This document shows positions 3,476 to 41,160 of a DNA stretch of 43,240 bases, one piece after another. The notes beneath the pieces were generated by a model. That model ran no database searches. It was not told the origin of the DNA and saw only the letters and a program-made list of their open reading frames with translations. A program made the position numbers and the translations under genes. Positions within the stretch are counted from its first letter, which is position 1. Each line of letters starts with the position of its first letter. Source of the stretch: Patescibacteria group bacterium (GTDB lineage Bacteria > Patescibacteriota > UBA1384 > 2-12-FULL-50-11); assembly GCA_016861245.1 (NCBI GenBank), contig BOKZ01000001.1:143107-186346 (forward strand). The letters are read 5' to 3'.

Positions 3476-4618
3476 TCATTTTGCAATTGGCTTTACTAGA
3501 AGTAGCCGATCGTCTTGCTCGGTTGGCTTGGTCCTACCGTCGCGATTACTAGTTGTGACATAAAAGGCGCCGTCGCCGCGCGCCGTAACTGCTCGTAAGC
3601 GCCCGTAGGTACCGTCGATAATTGTTTCGTGCCGGAGAATTTTTTTATCCTGTATCTCAATTAGCTGTAGCTTTTGGCCACGCAAACCAGCAAACATGGC
3701 GACGTTGCGCAGATCCCAAATTTTTAATCCGGCAAAATCGATTCCCGAAGGCGCCCAAGTTTCCGTATTGCTTGAAAGTAGCGGCGCCACGAAATTTTGA
3801 TGATCCAAATCGCCTTTGCGAGCTGTCGGCCAGCCGTAGTTTTTGGTTGGCTCGATAATATTTACTTCGTCGTACGCGCTCTCGCCGTGCTCGGTTTCAA
3901 TTAGCTCCTCAGTCAAAGTGTGCCAGGTTATGCCCTGGGGATTACGATGACCAAGCGAGTAAACGAGCGAACCCTTCGTTGGGTTGTCGTCCGGAATAGT
4001 ACCGTCGTCGTTCATCCTCAGGACCTTTCCTTCAAGTCGATCCGATCGCTGCGCCAATTCTGGACGTGCAGCATCGCCAGTTAACACGTATAGCTTCTCG
4101 TCGGGTCCGAATCGTAAACGGCCGCCGTTATGAATTTGGCCACCAGTTAAGTTATTTAGAATCGTTTTATCTTCGGCTAGTGCGCCGTTTTTAAACACGT
4201 AGCGAACGACTTTGTTCTTAAGCTCTCCCCCCGATCGATACGTATAGTACAAATAAACGTAGGAGTTACTCTCAAATTTCGGGTGAATCGCCACACCGGT
4301 TAACCCCGACTCGGAGACGATCGCTACGGGGATCTCGGCAACGGTTGTTGGCTGATTTTTCTTGTCCCAGTGTTTAACCTTGCCGGTTCGTTCAGTAATT
4401 AGTAGAGTTTCGTCTGGCAACACCGCCACATCCCACGGGATCTCAAGCCCGGTTAGCAGAACTTCTGTCTCCCAGGTATACGAAGTCTCTTTAGAATACG
4501 GCGTATCCGTTTTACTAGCGGTTGGATCTGATTTTTTGTAGAGCGCGACGTAGCCAAATGTAAAAAATCCGATTAAAACCGCCAGGAGAAGTAAACGAGC
4601 AGCAAGAGTGTCTTTCAT
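3476..4618 (-). CDS. PQQ-dependent sugar (glucose/sorbosone) dehydrogenase family protein, membrane-anchored or secreted
   Basis: 380 aa with an N-terminal hydrophobic anchor. Family-typical blocks: GLEIPWDVAVLPD, GLTGVAIHP, LYVLTGD, GHRNPQGITW, YGWP. Confidence 0.85.
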   Translation of the reverse strand: MKDTLAARLLLLAVLIGFFTFGYVALYKKSDPTASKTDTPYSKETSYTWETEVLLTGLEIPWDVAVLPDETLLITERTGKVKHWDKKNQPTTVAEIPVAIVSESGLTGVAIHPKFESNSYVYLYYTYRSGGELKNKVVRYVFKNGALAEDKTILNNLTGGQIHNGGRLRFGPDEKLYVLTGDAARPELAQRSDRLEGKVLRMNDDGTIPDDNPTKGSLVYSLGHRNPQGITWHTLTEELIETEHGESAYDEVNIIEPTKNYGWPTARKGDLDHQNFVAPLLSSNTETWAPSGIDFAGLKIWDLRNVAMFAGLRGQKLQLIEIQDKKILRHETIIDGTYGRLRAVTARGDGAFYVTTSNRDGRTKPTEQDDRLLLVKPIAK

Positions 4619-28546: not shown

Positions 28547-29494
28547 GTGAACATGAAAGTTACACGTGCAATTAAAGATTACATTAAGCACTGTCGCGTC
28601 AGTCGCGGGTATTCGCCGTACACTATCCGCAATTATCAAAACTATCTACTAGCGCTTGAACGCTGGTGTCAGCAGAATAATGTATCTGAGATCGAGCAGC
28701 TAACAAGAAGCGATATCGAGGATTTCCAACTTTCTCTGATTGAGGGCAACCCGACGATGAGTAAACGAACTCAGAATTACTATCTCATCAGTATCCGTTC
28801 GTTGTTTAAGTACTTGATCGACCGAGACGTTACCGTTCTGTCGCCTGAAAAAATTACACTTTCGAAAACTCCGGGTCGCGAGATTCACGCGCTTGAGCCA
28901 GACGAGATAGCGAGAATGTCCGAGCCGCAAACTAGCTCAATTAACGACTTGCGCGACAGCGCGATCGTCAACGTCTTATTCTCAACCGGAATGAGAGTAA
29001 GCGAGCTGCTCTCGCTAAAAAGAGCAGATATCAACCTGGAGCGCGGCGAATTTAGCGTTCGCGGTAAGGGTAACAAGGTGCGACCGGTATTTCTAACTGA
29101 AGACGCCACAGCAGCGCTTAAAAAATACTTACAACTACGCACCGACAAGAACCCATACGTTTTTACGCAACACCACCAAAAAACGAATCGATCCGTACCG
29201 CTTAGCGCTCGCGGCATCCAAAGGTGTCTAAATCGTTTAGCCAAACTGGCCGGTATTGTTAAGCCGGTTTCCCCGCATAAACTCCGTCACAGTTTTGCAA
29301 CGGAGCTACTGAGAAACGGTGCAGACCTACGCGCGGTACAAGCGATGCTCGGCCACTCGTCGATTACCACAACTCAGGTTTACACCCATGTAACAGATAA
29401 AAACCTTCAAGAAATACATCGGCGTTTTCATAATCAGAAGACAACGCCGGAACGATTAGTCGAATCAGAACCCAAATCGGGTCAGGTGTCTTGA
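28547..29494 (+). CDS. tyrosine site-specific recombinase, XerC/XerD-like
   Basis: SAM-like N-domain plus catalytic residues in MRVSELLSL, LRHSFATELLRNGADLRAVQAMLGHSSITTTQVYTHV. GTG 28547 or ATG 28553 could be the start. Confidence 0.9.
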   Translation: MNMKVTRAIKDYIKHCRVSRGYSPYTIRNYQNYLLALERWCQQNNVSEIEQLTRSDIEDFQLSLIEGNPTMSKRTQNYYLISIRSLFKYLIDRDVTVLSPEKITLSKTPGREIHALEPDEIARMSEPQTSSINDLRDSAIVNVLFSTGMRVSELLSLKRADINLERGEFSVRGKGNKVRPVFLTEDATAALKKYLQLRTDKNPYVFTQHHQKTNRSVPLSARGIQRCLNRLAKLAGIVKPVSPHKLRHSFATELLRNGADLRAVQAMLGHSSITTTQVYTHVTDKNLQEIHRRFHNQKTTPERLVESEPKSGQVS

Positions 29495-30585: not shown

Positions 30586-31137
30586 ATGATTAGCCTTGGT
30601 CAGGCCAAGATCGGCACCAAAATTATTTGGCGCCAGGAGCCGCATGAAATTATCGAAGCGAACCATCACAAAATGGGCCGAGGCGGCGCCAAGTTAGTAA
30701 CGAAACTTCGTAATTTAATTAGCCAGGCTGTCATCGATTACACATTCCAAGGCGACGAGAAGCTAGAAGAGGCAGAAGTCGGTTATCGAAACAGTCAGTA
30801 CCTCTATAGCGAGCAGACCACTCACTTCTTTATGACCAACGACGACTTCACACAATTTAGTCTGGTACTGCCGAAAGATCGAGTGAAATTTCTAAAAGAA
30901 GGCGAGAACGTTGATTTAATGATTTGGAACAACCAAGTAATCGACGTTAAACTACCGAAGAAAGTTGAACTTAGAGTCACGTATACCGAGCCTGGCTTTA
31001 AAGGCGATACCGCCAGCGCCGGCTCAAAACCTGCGACCGTCGAAACTGGAGCGGGTATTCAAGTGCCGTTATTTATCCAAATCGGCGACACGATTCGTAT
31101 TAATACCGATACCGGTGCTTACGATAGCCGCGTTTAG
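30586..31137 (+). CDS. efp: elongation factor P
   Basis: 183 aa with KMGRGGAKLVTKLRNL (loop with the modified-Lys/Arg position) and a three-domain length. Confidence 0.95.
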   Translation: MISLGQAKIGTKIIWRQEPHEIIEANHHKMGRGGAKLVTKLRNLISQAVIDYTFQGDEKLEEAEVGYRNSQYLYSEQTTHFFMTNDDFTQFSLVLPKDRVKFLKEGENVDLMIWNNQVIDVKLPKKVELRVTYTEPGFKGDTASAGSKPATVETGAGIQVPLFIQIGDTIRINTDTGAYDSRV

Positions 31138-31138
31138 C

Positions 31139-34100
31139 CTACGGCGCGATCTCTTGAATCGTCAACTCAGAGCCGACCGAGACCGCTAAGTAACCTCTAA
31201 CTACGCCTCCGTAATAACCGATCACGCGATAGGCGTCAGTCGAGGAGAGCGCCTTGGCGGCGTTAAATAGAAATAGTACGTCTTCGCTATCCGGAATCCA
31301 TTTCATATACCGCGATTGAAGACTATCTGACTTACAGCTGTAATAATCGTCTTCGTCTTTACTGATTGAGTTGCGGGCGCAGTAACTCTTACCGGCTGGC
31401 CCTGTTGTGATTGCTCGACCAACGCCAACTGGCGTAACGAGTATCGAACCGCCGCCGCTGATTCTACTAAACCCAGCAAACATCAAGGTCTTGCTGTTGT
31501 TGTTTTCTGGGGCGTTGAGCGAACCAAACGGCAGGTTGAAGCAGTCACCGCCGCCGGTATCGCATTTATACGGAGTGTACCCTTCCTGGTCCCAACGGCC
31601 ATTGGTTCCGTCGAGCGACTGTGTCGGCCCGCTGAGTATCAACGAACGCGATCCGGAGTCTGACTTAAATCCGTTGCCAGGGTTAACGACCGCCAAACTA
31701 TTACCCCACGAGCTACTAAATCGTCCTAGCGTTCCGAGGTGCCGCATTAACTGATAATCGCAATTCTCCTGACCCAAGAACTGACAGATATTTGACGATG
31801 TTGGCGCACTCGTAAAAGTTAAGCTTTCCTTCGCTACGCCAGTGTATTGTTCTTTGAGTTGGTTAGTAAATTGGGACGCTTTAATAGAAGTACTTGCACC
31901 GGCGTCGACGATCGAAGTAGTGCCGTCAATGTTTGTATTACCGTTTGGCTGTCCCAACACCCTCGGACCAAGCGTTGTGTTATTAAAGCGCCGCTGACCG
32001 CCAAACATAACCATCTTGCCAGTAGTAGTAACTTCGGTTGTCGATCCGTATAAGTTTGGAATATCAGTCGTAACCGAGACACTACTTTTTCCTAACGTCC
32101 AGCTCGGACTCGGGCCAGTAAACCGGTGAGCGTTTTGCAATCTCCAAACATTTGCGTACGGTCCAAACGTACCACTGGCAATAAAAGCAGTCTGCCTATC
32201 CGGCGTTACTGCCAGCGTTCCGTTCTGACGCGGCGCTGGGCGGTTCGAGCCGTTATGAGAATAAGCGCTCGGGAAACGGCCGACCCACTTTTTGGCGTTC
32301 GTTGTACCAGTTATATTATTTACCCATTCCATCGCTCCCTGCGTGTGCTTCGGACGATATGTCTGGTAACTAAGCGCCATCTTATCGTCACTGGTGCCGC
32401 CGACAAGAATATTCGTCGATCTAGATTCTTGTAGCCCAGTAGTCATAAACGCCGGACCGGCTGCGCTAAACACAACGCGATTTGCGCCAGTTAATACTCT
32501 AGAGTCAACAGTGGCGGTCATCATTGTTGTGTTGGTTCCGCTTAACGAGCCAGAGTACGCCATCACAATCGCGCCGACCGGAATTTTGCGCAGCTCAATC
32601 GCCGAAGCGCCGTTATCAACCTGCACGCTATCGACGTTGACTCGTTCGGCGTTCGAAACGCTTACCGAGCCACTATTGCTGTACCCCGGGTAGTTGATAG
32701 CGATCTTGGCGTTGGCGCTATGTCCGACCAGTCCGCCATCCCCGCTGTAACTCGGATGGTGACGAACAGTAATCCTCGATTGGTTGTTCGGATCGATTGC
32801 CGCTACGATCCCCGTAAAGCGTTCCCGAGCTGCTGAGCTCTGTCGTTCGATGATTATCGTGGCACCTTCCGTAACACGTTCTCGGTTCCAAGAGTAATTG
32901 CCCGACTCGTCAGAGACCTCAAGCCGCCAAGTCTTTGCGTCGTCCCAAACTATCTCGGTCTGCGGCGTACCGTTGTTATCCCAAGTTATTTCTTTTGATT
33001 TAATCAGCTCTTCGTTGTTGATTGGGGAATTACTTGTGAACACCGTTGCCTGGCCGGGCATCCTAACACTCTGGAAGGTTAGATTGCCAGTTGGCAAAGT
33101 ACCCATCGCCAGCGGTACTGGGCTCCAGCGATTATTAGCCGTCTCAAACTCCCAGATATCAACCGTGCGAGCGTTTGAAGCGTTTTGCGGTTGGTCGCCT
33201 TGCCAGAAGTAGAGTTTTGTACCAACAGCGTTTAATTTGCCGTTAGCTCGACCGATTGGGAGTAATCTAACTGACTCACCGACTTGAGCTACACCAGTCT
33301 GATAGTCGTTAGTTTGATTGATATCAAGACTATTAAAATTCACTACATTACCGTTGATGCTACTAACGTAACCGGCGTACGTCGCCTGTAATTGCGTTGG
33401 ATTGGTATAACTGTCGTAATGCTCAAGTACGACCGCGTCGCCAAGTCCAATACCGTCAACACGTACGTCAATCCGGCAGCTTTTTGTTGCGTCTTGCCAG
33501 ATACACTTAGCCGAGCCTTTCGTGCGATTAAGAACTGTTACAGACAATGATCGTAAACTAACACTCCCTGTTGCTTCCTTTATCCCGTACGTTTTAACGC
33601 TAATGGCGTTAGCCGCTGGCAACCCGACGACGCGCCCCCAGGTCAGAAGTACTCCGCCGTCAGTTTTGCTGCCGTTCAAATAGACTTCGTCGCCCACCGC
33701 AACGCCGGCGTTACTAGTAGTCAGCGTCAACGTAGTTGGCGTATTTGGGTCGATCGATAAGCTGACGGGGTTAGCGCCGTTATTGGTGTTAACCGTAACT
33801 CTTGTTTGCCAGCCGTCTTTCCCGCTTCGATCTGCGAACCGACTAACAGTTTTTAATTCGAGCCAAATGCCACTACCGTTAGAATTATCGCCAACAATCG
33901 ATGGTTGGTTCGTGTTGATTGGATCATAAACAACCCGATTCCATTGTCTGGTCGTTAAATCGTACCGAAACATAGTACTCGGAAATACTTTTGCTACCCG
34001 AGCACCAGGACGGTTTAGTCCTAAACAGGTTGTTAAATAATAGTTATCGGCACACGTCTTACCGGCACTTATTTCTCCGACCCCGCTGTAAAGGTAGCCA

Positions 34101-36097
34101 CCAAATAGGTAAACGTTACTTCCGACTGCGGCGATACTGGCACCAGCTCTTGGTCCAGGTAGGTTGTTCGGATCACCGGCAGCTGGAGTATTTGGCAGAT
34201 ACGTCCAAGCGGAATTCTGATTCGGTTCTGCTGGATTATACAGCCAGAATCCGTCATTAACGCCGTTAACTCCGCCGTCAAACTCGTTCGCGGTCGTAAT
34301 TCCACCGTAGTACACAACTTTCTCTGCCCCGCCGTCGTTCACAATAGTGGAAGCGAGCTCACGAGTCGGGAGTGGCATCTCACGAAACTTATCGAGCGTG
34401 AAACCGACCATCTGACGTCCAGGACCGTCGAAACTCACTTCAGTTACCCGCCCCCAGACCGGCTCACTGCCTGGCTTGCTAAGATTCACCACGTCGCCAA
34501 CTGCAGGACAAACTACAAAACTAGTTTCGGAGTACTCGCAACTTGATGCTGGTATCGTAACTCGTCGCCCGTCAGACCGAAGCGTGGCGTTAGAAACTGA
34601 GCGCTCAGTCGCGTGCTGCGGTCCAGCCTGTAAACTTCCGACTGCGATCTCAGCCAATCTCACCGCGCTGCCGCCCAGCTTTGTTGGGGTTTGATATGTG
34701 CCGTTAAAAAACGAGAGCTGGATCGCCACTTCGCCGTTACCCAACCTGTTAATACTAGTGATACGCACGTTATAAAATCGCCCCTGACTAGTGCTATCGC
34801 GACTAGTTAAAGCAATCGGTCTGCCCCGACTTTTGTCGATAGCAGTAACGGTAATCGGCTGGTTTAGTCGCAGACCCTCAAGTGAGCCGTAGACGTTGAA
34901 TGAGATCGTTGAGTTGGGTGTGATCGTCCGATTTAAGTCGCCGCTCGGGTAAATGAAGGAAAGCGATTTCGATCCTCGAGCTATCTCCACCGACCAGCCA
35001 GCGTCGTCGGCGCCGAGTACTTTCGTGGGAGTCGATTGACGCTGCCATTGCATCCCAGTCGTAACAGCGCCGCTAATATTATCGATGGTGTACGGTCCAG
35101 ATAAGCCGCTGGCGTAACCGAGCTCGGTATCGGCCTCCGGCAGATCGTTCCAAAGCGACGGCTGCAACCAAGTGACGCGACTACTCTCTTCTCCAGCGTC
35201 GGTAAATAAATCAGCTAGCCCGTACTGATACAGCAGGTCGTTTGTAACGGAGGCGTCGAGCCAGACCTTTAAGTTGTTGTTTTTTATAACGTTCTCGAAA
35301 TCGTCACGGATCTCGGTCGCGCTTTTTCGTATGAGTCCGCTATCGGGTTGGTTGGCGACCCTCAAAACGCCCGTATCGGTGAATCGGGGGAGATACGGGA
35401 TATAAACGAAATCAAGATTTCGATAAAACGAGCCGGTACCTGCTGCGTCTTTTTTATACAGAAACTCGTCTTGCGGACCGCCTAGTTTAACCGTCCAGTA
35501 GTTTCGGTTCGATTCCTGATACCCAGATGGAGCGTACGGATTGTAAAACTGACCGAGCTTGGTTAACTCACTTAGCGATCGCTCCTTCTCGATCGCGCTG
35601 TAACCGTTGGAGTTATTTGTAATTGAACCGATGGTACCAAGCGGTGTGTCGTTAATGATGTTAGCGTAGTAAAACAGTAACGCTGGGTTACTTAACGAGT
35701 CGTCGTTATCCAGTAGATACGTCCCGGTGTTAACCCAGGGCGACAGCACGGCTACTGCCAAACAGCGCGGCAGATTAATAACTTGCGACTCAAGACTATA
35801 AACACTATGGCGCGGATTTGGACGGAAGCGACCTTGGGGCGGAATGTTGACCGATTCTTCGCTGGTAAGATCGTACGCTTCCGGCGCAAACGAGGTCTGT
35901 GCGGTGCTTAACTTCTCGCGCAGCTTAACCAAACCGCTATCAGCGGCCAGTTTAGCTTTTGAAGCGCTCGTAATTCGGTCTGTTGCAAGGAGTTGATCAA
36001 ATCGAATCGCGATCGCCCCGAGCGTTGTGGTTGTTAAAACGCTAATTACCATAATGGCCAACAGCAGCGCTGAGCCGGATCTTAGTTCAGCTCTCAT
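31139..36097 (-). CDS. giant pilus-associated protein: PilX-like N-terminus fused to ~1600 aa with Kelch-like repeats (putative PilY1-like tip adhesin)
   Basis: The N-terminus MRAELRSGSALLLAIMVISVLTTTTLGAIAI resembles the PilX N-terminal domain and has no G/F(T/S)LxE prepilin motif. Kelch-like blades include VVYYGGITT..GFWLYNP, NVYLFGGYLYSG..MFRYDLTTRQWNRV, TKLYFWQGD..IWEFETANNRWSPV and KMVMFGGQRR. It is the last gene of the pilin operon. The ATG at 36097 overlaps the upstream stop (ATGA). The track ORF extends to TTG 36130. Confidence 0.85.
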   Translation of the reverse strand: MRAELRSGSALLLAIMVISVLTTTTLGAIAIRFDQLLATDRITSASKAKLAADSGLVKLREKLSTAQTSFAPEAYDLTSEESVNIPPQGRFRPNPRHSVYSLESQVINLPRCLAVAVLSPWVNTGTYLLDNDDSLSNPALLFYYANIINDTPLGTIGSITNNSNGYSAIEKERSLSELTKLGQFYNPYAPSGYQESNRNYWTVKLGGPQDEFLYKKDAAGTGSFYRNLDFVYIPYLPRFTDTGVLRVANQPDSGLIRKSATEIRDDFENVIKNNNLKVWLDASVTNDLLYQYGLADLFTDAGEESSRVTWLQPSLWNDLPEADTELGYASGLSGPYTIDNISGAVTTGMQWQRQSTPTKVLGADDAGWSVEIARGSKSLSFIYPSGDLNRTITPNSTISFNVYGSLEGLRLNQPITVTAIDKSRGRPIALTSRDSTSQGRFYNVRITSINRLGNGEVAIQLSFFNGTYQTPTKLGGSAVRLAEIAVGSLQAGPQHATERSVSNATLRSDGRRVTIPASSCEYSETSFVVCPAVGDVVNLSKPGSEPVWGRVTEVSFDGPGRQMVGFTLDKFREMPLPTRELASTIVNDGGAEKVVYYGGITTANEFDGGVNGVNDGFWLYNPAEPNQNSAWTYLPNTPAAGDPNNLPGPRAGASIAAVGSNVYLFGGYLYSGVGEISAGKTCADNYYLTTCLGLNRPGARVAKVFPSTMFRYDLTTRQWNRVVYDPINTNQPSIVGDNSNGSGIWLELKTVSRFADRSGKDGWQTRVTVNTNNGANPVSLSIDPNTPTTLTLTTSNAGVAVGDEVYLNGSKTDGGVLLTWGRVVGLPAANAISVKTYGIKEATGSVSLRSLSVTVLNRTKGSAKCIWQDATKSCRIDVRVDGIGLGDAVVLEHYDSYTNPTQLQATYAGYVSSINGNVVNFNSLDINQTNDYQTGVAQVGESVRLLPIGRANGKLNAVGTKLYFWQGDQPQNASNARTVDIWEFETANNRWSPVPLAMGTLPTGNLTFQSVRMPGQATVFTSNSPINNEELIKSKEITWDNNGTPQTEIVWDDAKTWRLEVSDESGNYSWNRERVTEGATIIIERQSSAARERFTGIVAAIDPNNQSRITVRHHPSYSGDGGLVGHSANAKIAINYPGYSNSGSVSVSNAERVNVDSVQVDNGASAIELRKIPVGAIVMAYSGSLSGTNTTMMTATVDSRVLTGANRVVFSAAGPAFMTTGLQESRSTNILVGGTSDDKMALSYQTYRPKHTQGAMEWVNNITGTTNAKKWVGRFPSAYSHNGSNRPAPRQNGTLAVTPDRQTAFIASGTFGPYANVWRLQNAHRFTGPSPSWTLGKSSVSVTTDIPNLYGSTTEVTTTGKMVMFGGQRRFNNTTLGPRVLGQPNGNTNIDGTTSIVDAGASTSIKASQFTNQLKEQYTGVAKESLTFTSAPTSSNICQFLGQENCDYQLMRHLGTLGRFSSSWGNSLAVVNPGNGFKSDSGSRSLILSGPTQSLDGTNGRWDQEGYTPYKCDTGGGDCFNLPFGSLNAPENNNSKTLMFAGFSRISGGGSILVTPVGVGRAITTGPAGKSYCARNSISKDEDDYYSCKSDSLQSRYMKWIPDSEDVLFLFNAAKALSSTDAYRVIGYYGGVVRGYLAVSVGSELTIQEIAP

Positions 36098-37371
36098 TCT
36101 ATCGGCGGATCCTCTCTTCTTGGTCCGCAACTGGTTGCAACCTGAATAACAGACTCGTTTGAGGTTACCGAGCCAACACGCGCCGTGATTCGATCGGTAT
36201 AGACGCCAATAACAGATTGGTAAACGCCGAAGTTAACGCTACCGTTGGCAGGAACTCCCACAGTATACTGCGCGCTCGTAGTTAGGTTCTGCATCGTATC
36301 GTTACTGTAGTAGCCGATAACAGTTAGGTTGAGCGATCGACCGCTCACAACACAAGCAGACGTCGGAGTAAGTTGTAGACTGACGAGTGTCACTTCGGCG
36401 CCACCACCCTGGATCGTCACCGAAGCGATCGCCGAAAAACCGCCGTAGGTAGCGCGCAGTTCGTATACTCCCGGAGTACTTCCGGCAGTGTAGGTATTGG
36501 TCGCTTGGCTGTACGAGCCGCCCTGAGCAGTTACGATGGCGTCGTCGGTAACATCAACGATCGAGTTATCGCTATAGCCAGCTTTAACTAAGAATTGCTG
36601 TGTACCGCCAGGATTGAATGTAACCGGACCGATCGGATCAAAACTAATGCCGAGTAACGTCGGCGGAACGTTTTTATGTTCTGTTAAGATCGGGACACTG
36701 CCAGAGCTATCGATCGCGCTTTGCCTCTGGTTGGCAAACGATTGTGATTCTATCCCTAAGCGATACCGCAGCTGACCGACCGAGCAGGTGATCGTCCCGC
36801 AGTTGTAGTCGGCTTTAACTATCGTGGCGCTAAAATTGGTGACTGTTATCGTCGAGCTAGTCAGTGTTCCTCGATACAGCGACGTCGAGTACTCGCAAAG
36901 ACCGGCGGTATTCATTCTAAAAACCAGTAGCGCGATCTGGGTACCGTCCGGCTGTAAGAAAAATTGTTCGTTGCCGCCGCTATCTTTGACTACCCGGGCA
37001 CGGCCGAGCAGCTGGCAAGTATTGTCTCGCTGCGCGCTACCGAAACGCTTCATCTCGAGGGCGAAACCTTGCTCATTAACACCGTAAGCAACTCGTCCTA
37101 ACTCAAAATTTTGGTCGTTTTGCGGATTCGGGTAACGAACGTCATTAATCAAGGCGATATTTCTTACCGAAGTCTGAGCAAGGCCGCGCCGTAAGCTATC
37201 GGCCGTCTCTCTGGTTCCTTGTACGATCAGCGCCCGCTGTTCGGTTCGCTCAATTAAACTGTTGGTGCCGATGGTAGCAAAGAGTGTGATTGTGATCGCC
37301 AGAACCATCAGCGTCACCGCAATCAGAAGTTCCATTAGAGTGAAGCCGCCTTGTTTAACGCGTCTAATCAT
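36094..37371 (-). CDS. type IV minor pilin-like protein (PilW position) with two C-terminal Big_2 Ig-like domains
   Basis: Prepilin motif KQGG/FTLMELLIAVTLMVLAI. Two Big_2-like segments: FNPGGTQQFLVKAGYSDNSIVDVTDDAIV..ATYGGFSAIASVTIQ and VVSGRSLNLTVIGYYSNDTMQNLTTSAQYTV. Confidence 0.8.
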   Translation of the reverse strand: MIRRVKQGGFTLMELLIAVTLMVLAITITLFATIGTNSLIERTEQRALIVQGTRETADSLRRGLAQTSVRNIALINDVRYPNPQNDQNFELGRVAYGVNEQGFALEMKRFGSAQRDNTCQLLGRARVVKDSGGNEQFFLQPDGTQIALLVFRMNTAGLCEYSTSLYRGTLTSSTITVTNFSATIVKADYNCGTITCSVGQLRYRLGIESQSFANQRQSAIDSSGSVPILTEHKNVPPTLLGISFDPIGPVTFNPGGTQQFLVKAGYSDNSIVDVTDDAIVTAQGGSYSQATNTYTAGSTPGVYELRATYGGFSAIASVTIQGGGAEVTLVSLQLTPTSACVVSGRSLNLTVIGYYSNDTMQNLTTSAQYTVGVPANGSVNFGVYQSVIGVYTDRITARVGSVTSNESVIQVATSCGPRREDPPIE

Positions 37372-39117: not shown

Positions 39118-39961
39118 CGATGTTGTTTTGGCAAGCCGTGCCGGTCGCCCCGATGTTAGCCGTCCAACCGGTACCGTCGTTTATTAACGGGGCAAAATCT
39201 GGACGCTTATCTTCGTCAATCGGGTTACCGAGACCGTCGACGGTGCATTGGTAGAAATAACGACCGTCAGTTAAGGAGCCGCTATTAGCCGAGAATGTGA
39301 AATACTCACCAGTCACGTCGGTGTCGTCGTCAAGATTACGGGCGTTCAAGCCGTTACCGTCGAAAAACCACTTCGAGGTATACGTCGCACCATCAGGAAA
39401 CAGCGAGAGCTTGCCGCTCTGATCATTCTGATTTTCCAGCTTAGCAGCTACTAGGAACTCCGAGTAATCGTAGCTAACTCGGAATTGGTACCGGTCGACA
39501 CCGACAAAGAGCGGGTCTTGGACTAATCGGTCCATATACTTAAGACAAACCAGAAAATTATTAACTGAGACGAAACCATCTTTTAGCCTAATCGGTGTCG
39601 TATCGAGATCACTCACCGTCGGCGTAGCCGTAGTTGGATCAGTAAACGTTGCGGTAGCACCGGTCTGAGCCCCATTACAGGCAACAACGTCGGGGGCGAG
39701 GCCGTAGTTAGAATTTTTGGCATCACCGTTATTGTCAAACGAACCCAAGTAAAACGTCGGATTCGGGTACACTTTGTAATCCGAGTTAAAGAGACTCAAG
39801 CCGGAAATAAAGAGGTTAATATCTGCCTTTCTCTTTGAGTCTCGCGATTTCTTTTGGATCGGCAGCACCGCCACCGTCACGATTGTAATTAGAATGCCGA
39901 TGATAGTGATCGAAACCAGTAGCTCAATTAATGTAAATCCCTTAGCGCGATTGTTAGTCAT
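39086..39961 (-). CDS. type IV pilin (candidate major pilin, 291 aa)
   Basis: Canonical class III signal MTNNRAKG/FTLIELLVSITIIGILITIV, then SRDSKRKADI (PulG/PilE-like). It is the first pilin gene after pilC. Confidence 0.85.
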   Translation of the reverse strand: MTNNRAKGFTLIELLVSITIIGILITIVTVAVLPIQKKSRDSKRKADINLFISGLSLFNSDYKVYPNPTFYLGSFDNNGDAKNSNYGLAPDVVACNGAQTGATATFTDPTTATPTVSDLDTTPIRLKDGFVSVNNFLVCLKYMDRLVQDPLFVGVDRYQFRVSYDYSEFLVAAKLENQNDQSGKLSLFPDGATYTSKWFFDGNGLNARNLDDDTDVTGEYFTFSANSGSLTDGRYFYQCTVDGLGNPIDEDKRPDFAPLINDGTGWTANIGATGTACQNNIDANTVSRSSY

Positions 39962-41160
39962 TAAAATTCCCCCGTTAAATTGTAAATTGGTTGCAGCACC
40001 GAGATAATTACGAACGCAACCGCTAGCCCTAAAATAACGATAATAAACGGCTCCAGCAGCGCTGATAGCGCACGCAAACGAGCGTCGACTTCGCTCTCGT
40101 AGTAGTCGGCAAGCGTGGTGGTGGTGCCAGCCAGATCACCCGATTGCTGCCCGACAAAGAGCAGCTGCGTCATCATCTTCGGAAAGTATCGGTTATTTTG
40201 CAGCGAAGTTGAGATCGCCGAACCTTGCTCGAGCGCTCGCATCAACGATTTCAAGGCTTTCTTGTATGTAACGTTGACAGTCGAATCCATCAGGATATCA
40301 ACCGATTCGATAATCGGTACTCCGGATTTAACCAATAGCGACATCGTCCGGTTAAACCGCGCCAAGAAAACATACTGATTCAACCCGCCAAACACCGGAA
40401 AGTTAAGACTAATATAGCTACCAACGTTTTTACCCGGCTTGGTTGTAAGAAAAAACTTAAGCGCAATCAGAAATACGATCAACCCGCCGATAATGTAGTA
40501 CCAATAATTCGTAATAAAGTCGGTGGTTGCCAGTAGAATCGTCGTTGAGAGCGGTAGCTCGCTACCGCTACTCTCAAAAATCGCTTTAATCGGCGGAATA
40601 ACCTTCGTCATAATAATGGCACCGATAATTACCATCACCACCAAAATAAACGCTGGGTAGATCATGGCGCCGCGAACGCGGCTAGTAAATTCGGCCGAGC
40701 GAGCTGTAACGTTCGCGAGCTCGTCGAGCACTTTTACCAAATTTCCTGTGGCTTCGCCGGCTTTAATAACACCGATCTCAACAACTGGGAACGTTTTCGG
40801 GTGGCCGGCCATCGCAACCGAGAGCGGAAAGCCGTTTTCGAGACTAGCAGAAATTTCTCGCAGTATCTGCCGAAACTTGCGATTCGGCGTCTCTGAGACG
40901 ATATCGATCGACTGGGTGATACCGACGCCAGCCTTTAGCATTGTTGAGAGTTCGCGATACACTATCGAGCGATCTTTCGCAGACACTCGGCTAATCGATA
41001 GGCGCTTGAGTAAACCTTTCTCTTCGGCCACCGACAGGATGGTGTAGTTTCTGCTGTTGAGGGCTCGTCGAAGTTGTCCTGCCGAGCTAGCGATCGCCCG
41101 ACCGGTATGAACCCGTCCCTTACTGTCCCTTACCCGGTACTTATAACGGATTTTGCTCAA
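39961..41160 (-). CDS. pilC: type IV pilus platform protein PilC (GspF family)
   Basis: 399 aa with two T2SS-F repeats (LSTMLKAGVGITQSI.., FNRTMSLLVKSGVPIIESV..). TTG start preceded by GGAGGG. Confidence 0.95.
   Translation of the reverse strand: MSKIRYKYRVRDSKGRVHTGRAIASSAGQLRRALNSRNYTILSVAEEKGLLKRLSISRVSAKDRSIVYRELSTMLKAGVGITQSIDIVSETPNRKFRQILREISASLENGFPLSVAMAGHPKTFPVVEIGVIKAGEATGNLVKVLDELANVTARSAEFTSRVRGAMIYPAFILVVMVIIGAIIMTKVIPPIKAIFESSGSELPLSTTILLATTDFITNYWYYIIGGLIVFLIALKFFLTTKPGKNVGSYISLNFPVFGGLNQYVFLARFNRTMSLLVKSGVPIIESVDILMDSTVNVTYKKALKSLMRALEQGSAISTSLQNNRYFPKMMTQLLFVGQQSGDLAGTTTTLADYYESEVDARLRALSALLEPFIIVILGLAVAFVIISVLQPIYNLTGEF

Follow-up and report, generated by a model that had tools for sequence, protein, structure and literature searches.

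The DNA analysed here, a 43,240-nucleotide stretch from a Patescibacteria group bacterium (assembly GCA_016861245.1, contig BOKZ01000001.1, positions 143,107 to 186,346; hereafter the window), carries on its minus strand a six-gene operon of pilus genes that ends in a giant gene, whose product we propose to be a pilus cap subunit bearing its own adhesin head. The giant gene lies in an open reading frame (ORF) at 31139..36130 on the minus strand, which encodes 1663 residues if read from a TTG codon. The ATG at 36097 is the likely true start, and homologues begin at the equivalent position; from this codon to the stop at 31139 the product counts 1652 residues (177.9 kDa, pI 6.5), among which Ser, Gly, Thr and Asn are abundant. 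The ORF of ~1650 residues described in a first-pass annotation of the window is real, since ~1650 open codons at 49% GC cannot be chance, and a fused or mis-called ORF was ruled out by ~45 homologues that are collinear with it over the entire length. The start codon overlaps the TGA stop of the upstream 425-residue pilin gene in an ATGA tetranucleotide at 36094-36097, so that the translational coupling proposed earlier is visible in the sequence itself. At the other end, a single nucleotide lies between the giant gene's stop codon (31139-31141, minus strand) and the last position of the convergently oriented gene for elongation factor P (EF-P; 30586-31137, plus strand), which leaves no room for separate intrinsic terminators.

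The operon runs from a PilC/GspF platform gene through a putative major pilin gene and three minor-pilin-like genes, named here after the H, I and J positions of comparable sets, to the giant gene (Table 1). Its genes lie close together: neighbours overlap at four junctions, by 1, 32, 1 and 4 nt, and are separated by 1 nt at the fifth. All four upstream pilins have Glu at position +5 of the hydrophobic helix, and the giant has Leu. The giant gene thus follows a major pilin and three Glu5-bearing minor pilins in an H-I-J-K arrangement that is conserved in related genomes.

Table 1. Domains of the giant protein and genes of its operon. Positions are those of the window; a slash separates the leader from the hydrophobic helix.
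Feature	Position	Strand	Supporting observations
Giant gene	31139..36097	-	1652 residues plus stop; full-length homologues
Leader and helix, residues 1-65	35903..36097	-	basic leader MRAELRSG, then hydrophobic SALLLAIMVISVLTTTTLGAIAI..., Leu at +5
Conserved α/β domain, residues 66-345	35063..35902	-	most conserved globular part; pLDDT 70-89 for residues 110-330
β domains A (~360-465) and B (~480-570), residues 346-575	34373..35062	-	pLDDT about 90
Kelch blades 1-2, residues 576-740	33878..34372	-	KVVYYGG...W618...W631; NVYLFGG...W719; Cys682/Cys691 hairpin
First nested insertion, β domains C and D, residues 741-940	33278..33877	-	motifs 797-825, 883-915; Cys865/Cys874; DSSP of model, pLDDT about 85-94
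Kelch blade 3, residues 941-1000	33098..33277	-	KLYFWQG...W982...W991
Second nested insertion, β domains E and F, residues 1001-1250	32348..33097	-	AF2 model; hhalign E-F
Remaining Kelch blades, residues 1251-1652	31142..32347	-	AFIASGT...W1318...W1333; KMVMFGG; TLMFAGF; lower-confidence loop/helix insertions
J-position pilin-like gene, 425 residues	36094..37371	-	G/FTLME; N_methyl 7e-5; weak GspJ 3.9e-4
I-position small pilin-like gene, 148 residues	37371..37817	-	G/FSIIE; weak PilV (5.6e-4), XpsI (9e-4) and GspI matches
H-position pilin-like gene, 432 residues	37819..39117	-	A/YSLVE; weak N_methyl; weak pilin and XpsH matches
Putative major pilin, 291 residues	39086..39961	-	G/FTLIE; N_methyl 1.9e-9; PilA/GspG N-terminal matches
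PilC/GspF platform protein, first gene of operon	39961..41160	-	T2SSF 5.9e-56; GspF 2.2e-88; PilC 3.6e-79

The giant protein opens with a short basic leader and a hydrophobic stretch that contains the string RSGSALLLAIMVISVLT at residues 6-22. The AlphaFold2 (AF2) model of residues 1-600, with a mean predicted local distance difference test score (pLDDT) of 76.9, places a 57-residue helix at residues 8-64 with pLDDT of 45-68, a low value that is usual for an exposed pilin helix. Its N-terminus follows the pattern of a class III signal peptide, namely a short basic leader with Gly or Ala as its last residue and a hydrophobic helix of ~20 residues (MRAELRSG/SALLLAIMVISVLTTTTLGAIAI). Of the 44 family members checked, 33 have Gly at -1 and the other 11 have Ala. 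The first residue after the leader is Ser and the fifth Leu, both conserved in the family, and S9, L11, L12 and L13 are nearly invariant. The methylation motif (Phe or Met at +1, Glu at +5) is absent, and the giant protein has no N_methyl PF07963 or TIGR02532 match.

The α/β domain that follows is well conserved (0.60, against 0.69 for the helix), and no relatives of it were detected outside the giant family in an exhaustive profile search, which returned giants; the same N-terminal profile of 324 positions gave 0 matches at E≤10 when searched against the PDB. We propose that this domain may be a module docking onto the other minor pilins. Next come the two small β domains A and B; B contains the motif GDxVxL...WGRVxxV as well as an invariant cysteine pair, Cys520/Cys530. 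Foldseek searches with the model of residues 1-600 returned only weak matches to Fab fragments and tandem Ig-like domains (template modelling (TM) scores <0.2), which probably reflect these two domains. The motif GDxVxL...WGxVxxV recurs in the small β domains further along the chain (residues 531-556, 797-825, 883-915, 1075-1101 and 1172-1199), and hhalign comparison of the corresponding sub-alignments gave probabilities of 70% for B-C, 59% for B-D, 38% for C-D and 32% for E-F.

The remainder of the protein was modelled as residues 571-1652 (mean pLDDT 82.3, predicted TM-score 0.82) and is almost wholly β, with pLDDT dropping to 50-80 beyond about residue 1370. Foldseek comparison of this model with the PDB, the kind of check that the first-pass annotation had called for, returned 84 matches at E≤1e-3 with Kelch propellers on top. 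Among the leading matches were KLHDC2, FBXO42 and LZTR1 (probability 1.0, E 4e-7), together with KLHL proteins, YjhT/NanM and designed six-bladed Kelch proteins, likewise at probability 1.0 and with E about 1e-6 to 1e-7; endosialidase propellers were also found. The TM-scores to Kelch propellers are only 0.25-0.31, which we attribute to the large insertions. Profile searches point to the same fold. Pfam reports Kelch matches at residues 585-730 of the window protein, with Kelch_4 above its cut-off (21.8 versus 21.6 bits) and PF24681 at 2.2e-9 but under its curated cut-off, which is passed in the relatives P0050 (63.2 bits) and P0053 (50.9 bits). Distant relatives show Kelch motifs in three separated zones, and the full profile, searched against solved structures, retrieved Kelch proteins only, to 1e-6, over approximately one to two blades. 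The blades also align with one another by hhalign, at probabilities of 56% (K2-K3), 87% (K3-K4), 88% (K2-K4) and 70% (K2-K5). In the model, residues ~580-1652 are accordingly predicted to be a Kelch-type β-propeller, presumably of 6-7 blades, interrupted by two pairs of small β domains. The Kelch-like blades noticed at first reading are therefore present, but they do not extend along the whole length as was then supposed; they are confined to residues ~580-1652, and the first ~570 residues are built from the helix, the α/β domain and two β domains. Against a viral library, the Foldseek matches were limited to phage proteins of Kelch, galactose-oxidase-like and endosialidase-like type with low TM-scores, and nothing pointed to a phage origin.

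Conservation is distributed unevenly over the protein. The E/F insertion (residues 1001-1250) is the least conserved region of the protein (0.36-0.48 and 0.42 in two calculations) and may be a candidate ligand-binding surface. The best conserved stretch is the extreme C-terminus (residues 1601-1652; 0.71-0.82). In the model, its last three strands (1622-1651) probably form the closing blade together with the strand at 582-588, and the closing of the propeller by these strands would explain their conservation. Six closely spaced Cys pairs are scattered over the chain, of which two (520/530 and 865/874) are invariant, two (682/691 and 1573/1588) are almost invariant, and two (1438/1446 and 1512/1519) are less well conserved; they suggest an extracytoplasmic protein stabilised by disulfides. 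A thiol-disulfide oxidoreductase with a presumed role in pilin folding is enriched in bacteria of the Candidate Phyla Radiation (CPR; PMC6744442).

The giant protein belongs to a family that is found throughout its lineage. A word-indexed search retrieved 42 full-length homologues of 1507-1763 residues at 30-98% identity, plus a few truncated ones, and an exhaustive HMMER search of 1.84 billion representatives with the 324-position N-terminal profile, run without row L013, added five more distant giants of 1470-1840 residues. The whole family comprises ~45 full-length homologues (21-98% identity, 1470-1840 residues), all in Patescibacteria, mostly in metagenome-assembled genomes (MAGs) of Candidatus Berkelbacteria, and all annotated as 'hypothetical protein'. 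Their alignment is collinear throughout, with a mean column identity of 39%; the closest gene, in MAG DTUPAT3, is 97-98% identical to that of the window. The exhaustive search returned 29 proteins, namely family members or fragments, the five distant giants, and one weak match to P0054 (901 residues) in four stretches (E 2.2e-4). The most distant members can still be aligned with the family profile, as P0051 shows (hhalign probability 98.9% over 1172 columns, 21% identity).

Synteny was examined in five of the related loci: L001 (a 768,650-bp Berkelbacteria contig), L002 and L003, whose giants are 30-35% identical to that of the window, and L014 and L015, at ~21%. A scan of genome contigs yielded only 10 loci, which is not enough to census the family by taxon. 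The five examined loci all share the order PilC, pilin, large pilin, a gene of 145-183 residues, a pilin of 187-346 residues and the giant; at the last junction the two genes overlap by 4 nt in three loci and lie 3-14 nt apart in the others. The linkage of the giant to pilin genes and the fimU-pilVWX- or gspHIJK-like gene order recognised at first reading thus hold beyond the window, down to 21% identity of the giant. The flanks are equally constant: a divergent gene for a PRC-barrel protein lies on one side, and convergent genes for EF-P, in some loci ribosomal protein S18, single-stranded DNA-binding protein (SSB) and ribosomal protein S6 lie on the other. The window operon sits between the same core genes, with S6, SSB and EF-P facing a PRC-barrel and a tRNA-binding protein. 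Constant order and core flanks indicate that the operon belongs to the vertically inherited core of the lineage and is not an island, and carriage as mobile-element cargo is rejected because core genes flank the operon both here and at each related locus.

Several further observations concern these loci. The distant giants P0051 (L014, 8001-13391) and P0049 (L015, 8001-12818), at ~21% identity, occupy the same operon position and define a wider superfamily. The N-termini of distant giants look more PilX_N-like, the best match (E 0.0018) being that of P0055. A XerC/D-type tyrosine recombinase gene (28547-29494; Phage_integrase 3.7e-46) adjoins the S6-SSB-EF-P genes in the window and is kept at the same place in L001-L003; it is therefore a housekeeping gene and no sign of a mobile element.

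We read residues 1-65 as a pilin-like α-1 helix of the cap type found in GspK and PilX. Prepilin peptidases cut after Gly or Ala; in type IV pili, a subunit without Glu5 caps the tip complex, and assembly proceeds from tip to base (PMC10191384). The giant without Glu5, behind upstream pilins that have it, matches this rule, which supports its reading as the cap subunit. Like GspK of type II secretion systems and PilX (PilK) of type IVa pili, it is encoded by the last gene after the H-, I- and J-position pilins, is the largest of the set, and has a leader that ends in Gly. It differs from them in having no T2SSK or PilX_N match at curated thresholds and no structural match; GspK itself combines a pilin fold with an inserted α domain. 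The giant is also approximately five to eight times the size of GspK and PilX proteins.

A number of results weigh against this placement. At its gathering cut-off of 25.5 bits, PilX_N (PF14341) recognises none of the N-termini: the window protein has no match even at E≤10, and 6 of 17 family N-termini give sub-threshold, in-register matches of 8.5-18.7 bits (E 0.0018 to 2.7). N_methyl, T2SSK (PF03934) and GspK likewise yielded no significant Pfam, NCBIfam or PDB-profile match for the window protein, and a scan of the giant against NCBIfam gave no match at E≤1. The model of residues 1-600 found no pilin or GspK match in Foldseek, and nothing at E≤1e-3, in a search in which a multi-domain query could miss weak similarity; pLDDT is low both for the helix and for the first strands, so that a pilin fold stays putative. 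The -1 residue is Ala in a quarter of the family, and the exhaustive profile search uncovered no minor pilin of ordinary size with the giant's N-terminal module. The PilX-type N-terminus of the first-pass annotation therefore stands in part: the N-terminus is pilin-like and lacks Glu5, but the PilX_N profile misses the window protein and reaches only 18.7 bits in its relatives. The giant appears as a cap pilin in position and sequence logic, yet is not classifiable as a member of PilX_N or GspK.

A rival reading takes the helix as an uncleaved signal anchor and the giant as a membrane-bound surface adhesin or carbohydrate-active enzyme that is simply co-expressed with pilus genes. Pilin and PilX_N profiles that all stay below threshold, the want of a structural match to pilins, and Ala at -1 in 11 of 44 members fit such a protein, and the endosialidase, galactose-oxidase-like and NanM/YjhT propellers among the Foldseek matches make an enzymatic role possible. 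Nevertheless, we consider this reading unlikely. A small residue (Gly or Ala) at -1 in all 44 members would be needless in a plain anchor; the giant stays in the K position behind three pilin genes at every locus examined, with an overlap or a gap of no more than 14 nt; and PilX_N is the recurrent weak match among the family N-termini, full-length and in register. Finally, a functional precedent for a pilin with a propeller exists in the same phylum.

That precedent is PilX2 of TM7x (Nanosynbacter lyticus, Saccharibacteria), a minor pilin whose C-terminal part is an RCC1 propeller of seven blades, proposed as a tip adhesin and experimentally required for efficient host binding, although filaments form without it (PMC11623550). 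Both proteins come from Patescibacteria and are encoded by the largest pilin-like gene of a minor-pilin locus, and both have a non-canonical signal peptide and an N-terminal helix followed by a propeller head. The propellers belong to different families, Kelch in the giant and RCC1 in PilX2, and the giant adds an α/β domain of ~280 residues, two β domains and four domains nested in the propeller. No sequence kinship between the two was detected: the exhaustive N-terminal search gave giants and fragments, and PilX2 was compared by description only.

The giant is thus best read, with moderate confidence, as a type IV pilus cap subunit at the GspK/PilX(PilK) position that carries its own adhesin head. 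Of the two options offered in the first-pass annotation, the 'new very large tip protein' is thus the better reading. In this scheme, the short basic leader and the hydrophobic α-1 helix would put the giant in the membrane like a pilin, and the leader would probably be removed by prepilin peptidase. Because the giant lacks Glu5 and would need no subunit above it, it would start assembly together with the three H-, I- and J-position minor pilins. The filament would then grow from its base and push the complex outward, such that the Kelch propeller of ~1,070 residues ends at the tip, where it may attach to a ligand carried by a host cell or surface. The PilQ secretin is absent from CPR bacteria (PMC6744442), and without an outer-membrane secretin in Patescibacteria the 178-kDa head would meet no channel-size limit. 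High conservation in the N-terminal module (0.60-0.69) and low conservation in the E/F insertion fit a docking part that stays constant and a recognition part that varies.

Alternatively, the head of a cap at the same place could have DNA or some other non-host molecule as its ligand and, much like the competence receptor ComZ of Thermus, serve the scavenging of nucleotides or DNA and not attachment. Two segments of the giant are basic (pI 9.5 for residues 346-575 and 9.3 for residues 1251-1600), yet the protein as a whole has a pI of 6.5, no DNA-binding family or fold is found among its Pfam or Foldseek matches, and Kelch propellers usually bind proteins or sugars. Type IV pili of CPR bacteria have been widely proposed to serve DNA uptake (PMC6744442); however, the TM7x pilus with its propeller pilin made no contribution to competence (PMC11623550), and we regard a DNA-binding head as improbable.

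The resemblance to PilY1/PilC, also large propeller proteins encoded at the end of minor-pilin operons and presumed to act as tip adhesins, is one of layout. PilY1 is not a pilin, and its propeller docks on minor pilins (PMC10191384, PMC8179133); the giant has a pilin-like helix of its own and a Kelch-type propeller without a PilY1 (PF05567 / IPR008707) match. The PilX-PilY1 fusion suggested in the first-pass annotation hence fails in the sense of homology: although a β-propeller lies at its C-terminal end and its gene closes a minor-pilin operon, the giant is very unlikely to be a genuine PilY1/PilC homologue with PilX fused to it, as PF05567 gives no match at E≤1, the best 50 of the 84 significant Foldseek matches are Kelch proteins and include no PilY1 chain, the PDB profile search returns Kelch proteins only, and the blades show the Kelch GG...W pattern.

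A parallel in design is provided by modular pilins such as Streptococcus sanguinis PilB, with a vWA module, and PilC, with a lectin module, in which a pilin-like carrier bears a grafted module in a monoderm-type envelope, as in the giant (PMC8179133). The 2021 survey of such pilins by Raynaud et al. required the IPR012902 motif, its most extreme case had 860 residues, and its authors note that pilins of this kind escape a signature-based census (PMC8179133). With respect to that definition, the giant has the extra domain, of Kelch type, and no motif equivalent to IPR012902 was detected in it; at 1652 residues it exceeds the 860-residue extreme, and its extra part is a propeller with nested insertions and not a single linked domain. 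A literature search on Kelch-bearing pilins of CPR bacteria found nothing. A carrier pilin with a grafted tip-binding module is an established concept, embodied by modular pilins, PilY1/PilC and TM7x PilX2. What is new in the giant is a separate, lineage-wide family about twice the size of the 860-residue extreme of the 2021 census; a propeller of the Kelch and not of the RCC1 or PilY1 type, with four small β domains nested between its blades; and a proposed N-terminal docking module without detectable relatives.

The neighbouring genes have peculiarities of their own. The J-position pilin has 425 residues in the window, compared with 187-346 in related loci, and its extra C-terminal part of ~200 residues has a weak Big_2 (Ig-like) match (E 0.051); it seems to be a second enlarged minor pilin, specific to the lineage. 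In the H-position protein, Ala and not Gly precedes the hydrophobic helix (KRFA/YSLVE), and its gene shares 32 nt with the pilin gene before it; a similar overlap, of 38 nt, occurs in L001. The putative major pilin, at 291 residues, is unusually large for a major pilin, and pilins at the same position in related loci have 205-328 residues. Only the neighbouring pilins have weak N-terminal matches to Verru_Chthon cassette proteins C and D, and the giant has no NCBIfam match to Verru_Chthon cassette protein A (TIGR02600) at E≤1. Elsewhere, the window is minimal and rich in housekeeping genes, apart from a β-propeller protein of the glucose/sorbosone dehydrogenase family at 3476-4618 (GSDH, 1.8e-80).

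Berkelbacteria and their relatives have genomes of ~0.77 Mb and no cultured member, and a 5-kb gene kept in the same pilus operon across the lineage is therefore a prime candidate for a host-recognition molecule. Going further, we tentatively suggest, while holding it rather doubtful, that the giant family comprises the largest pilin-type subunit yet seen, a single-chain answer to the PilX plus PilY1 of diderm bacteria, enabled by the lack of a secretin, whose nested, fast-evolving β domains form the host-recognition surface of Berkelbacteria. If so, the variable insertions at residues ~1000-1250 would be host-range determinants and could be used as baits for hosts. A recombinant form of the giant's head could probe host cells or glycans. 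Grafted adhesins on pilins, known from S. sanguinis PilB/PilC and TM7x PilX2, would with the giant be extended to a protein of far greater size and different construction, missed by signature-based censuses, and the giant may show a way in which the roles of PilX and PilY1 are combined in one chain.

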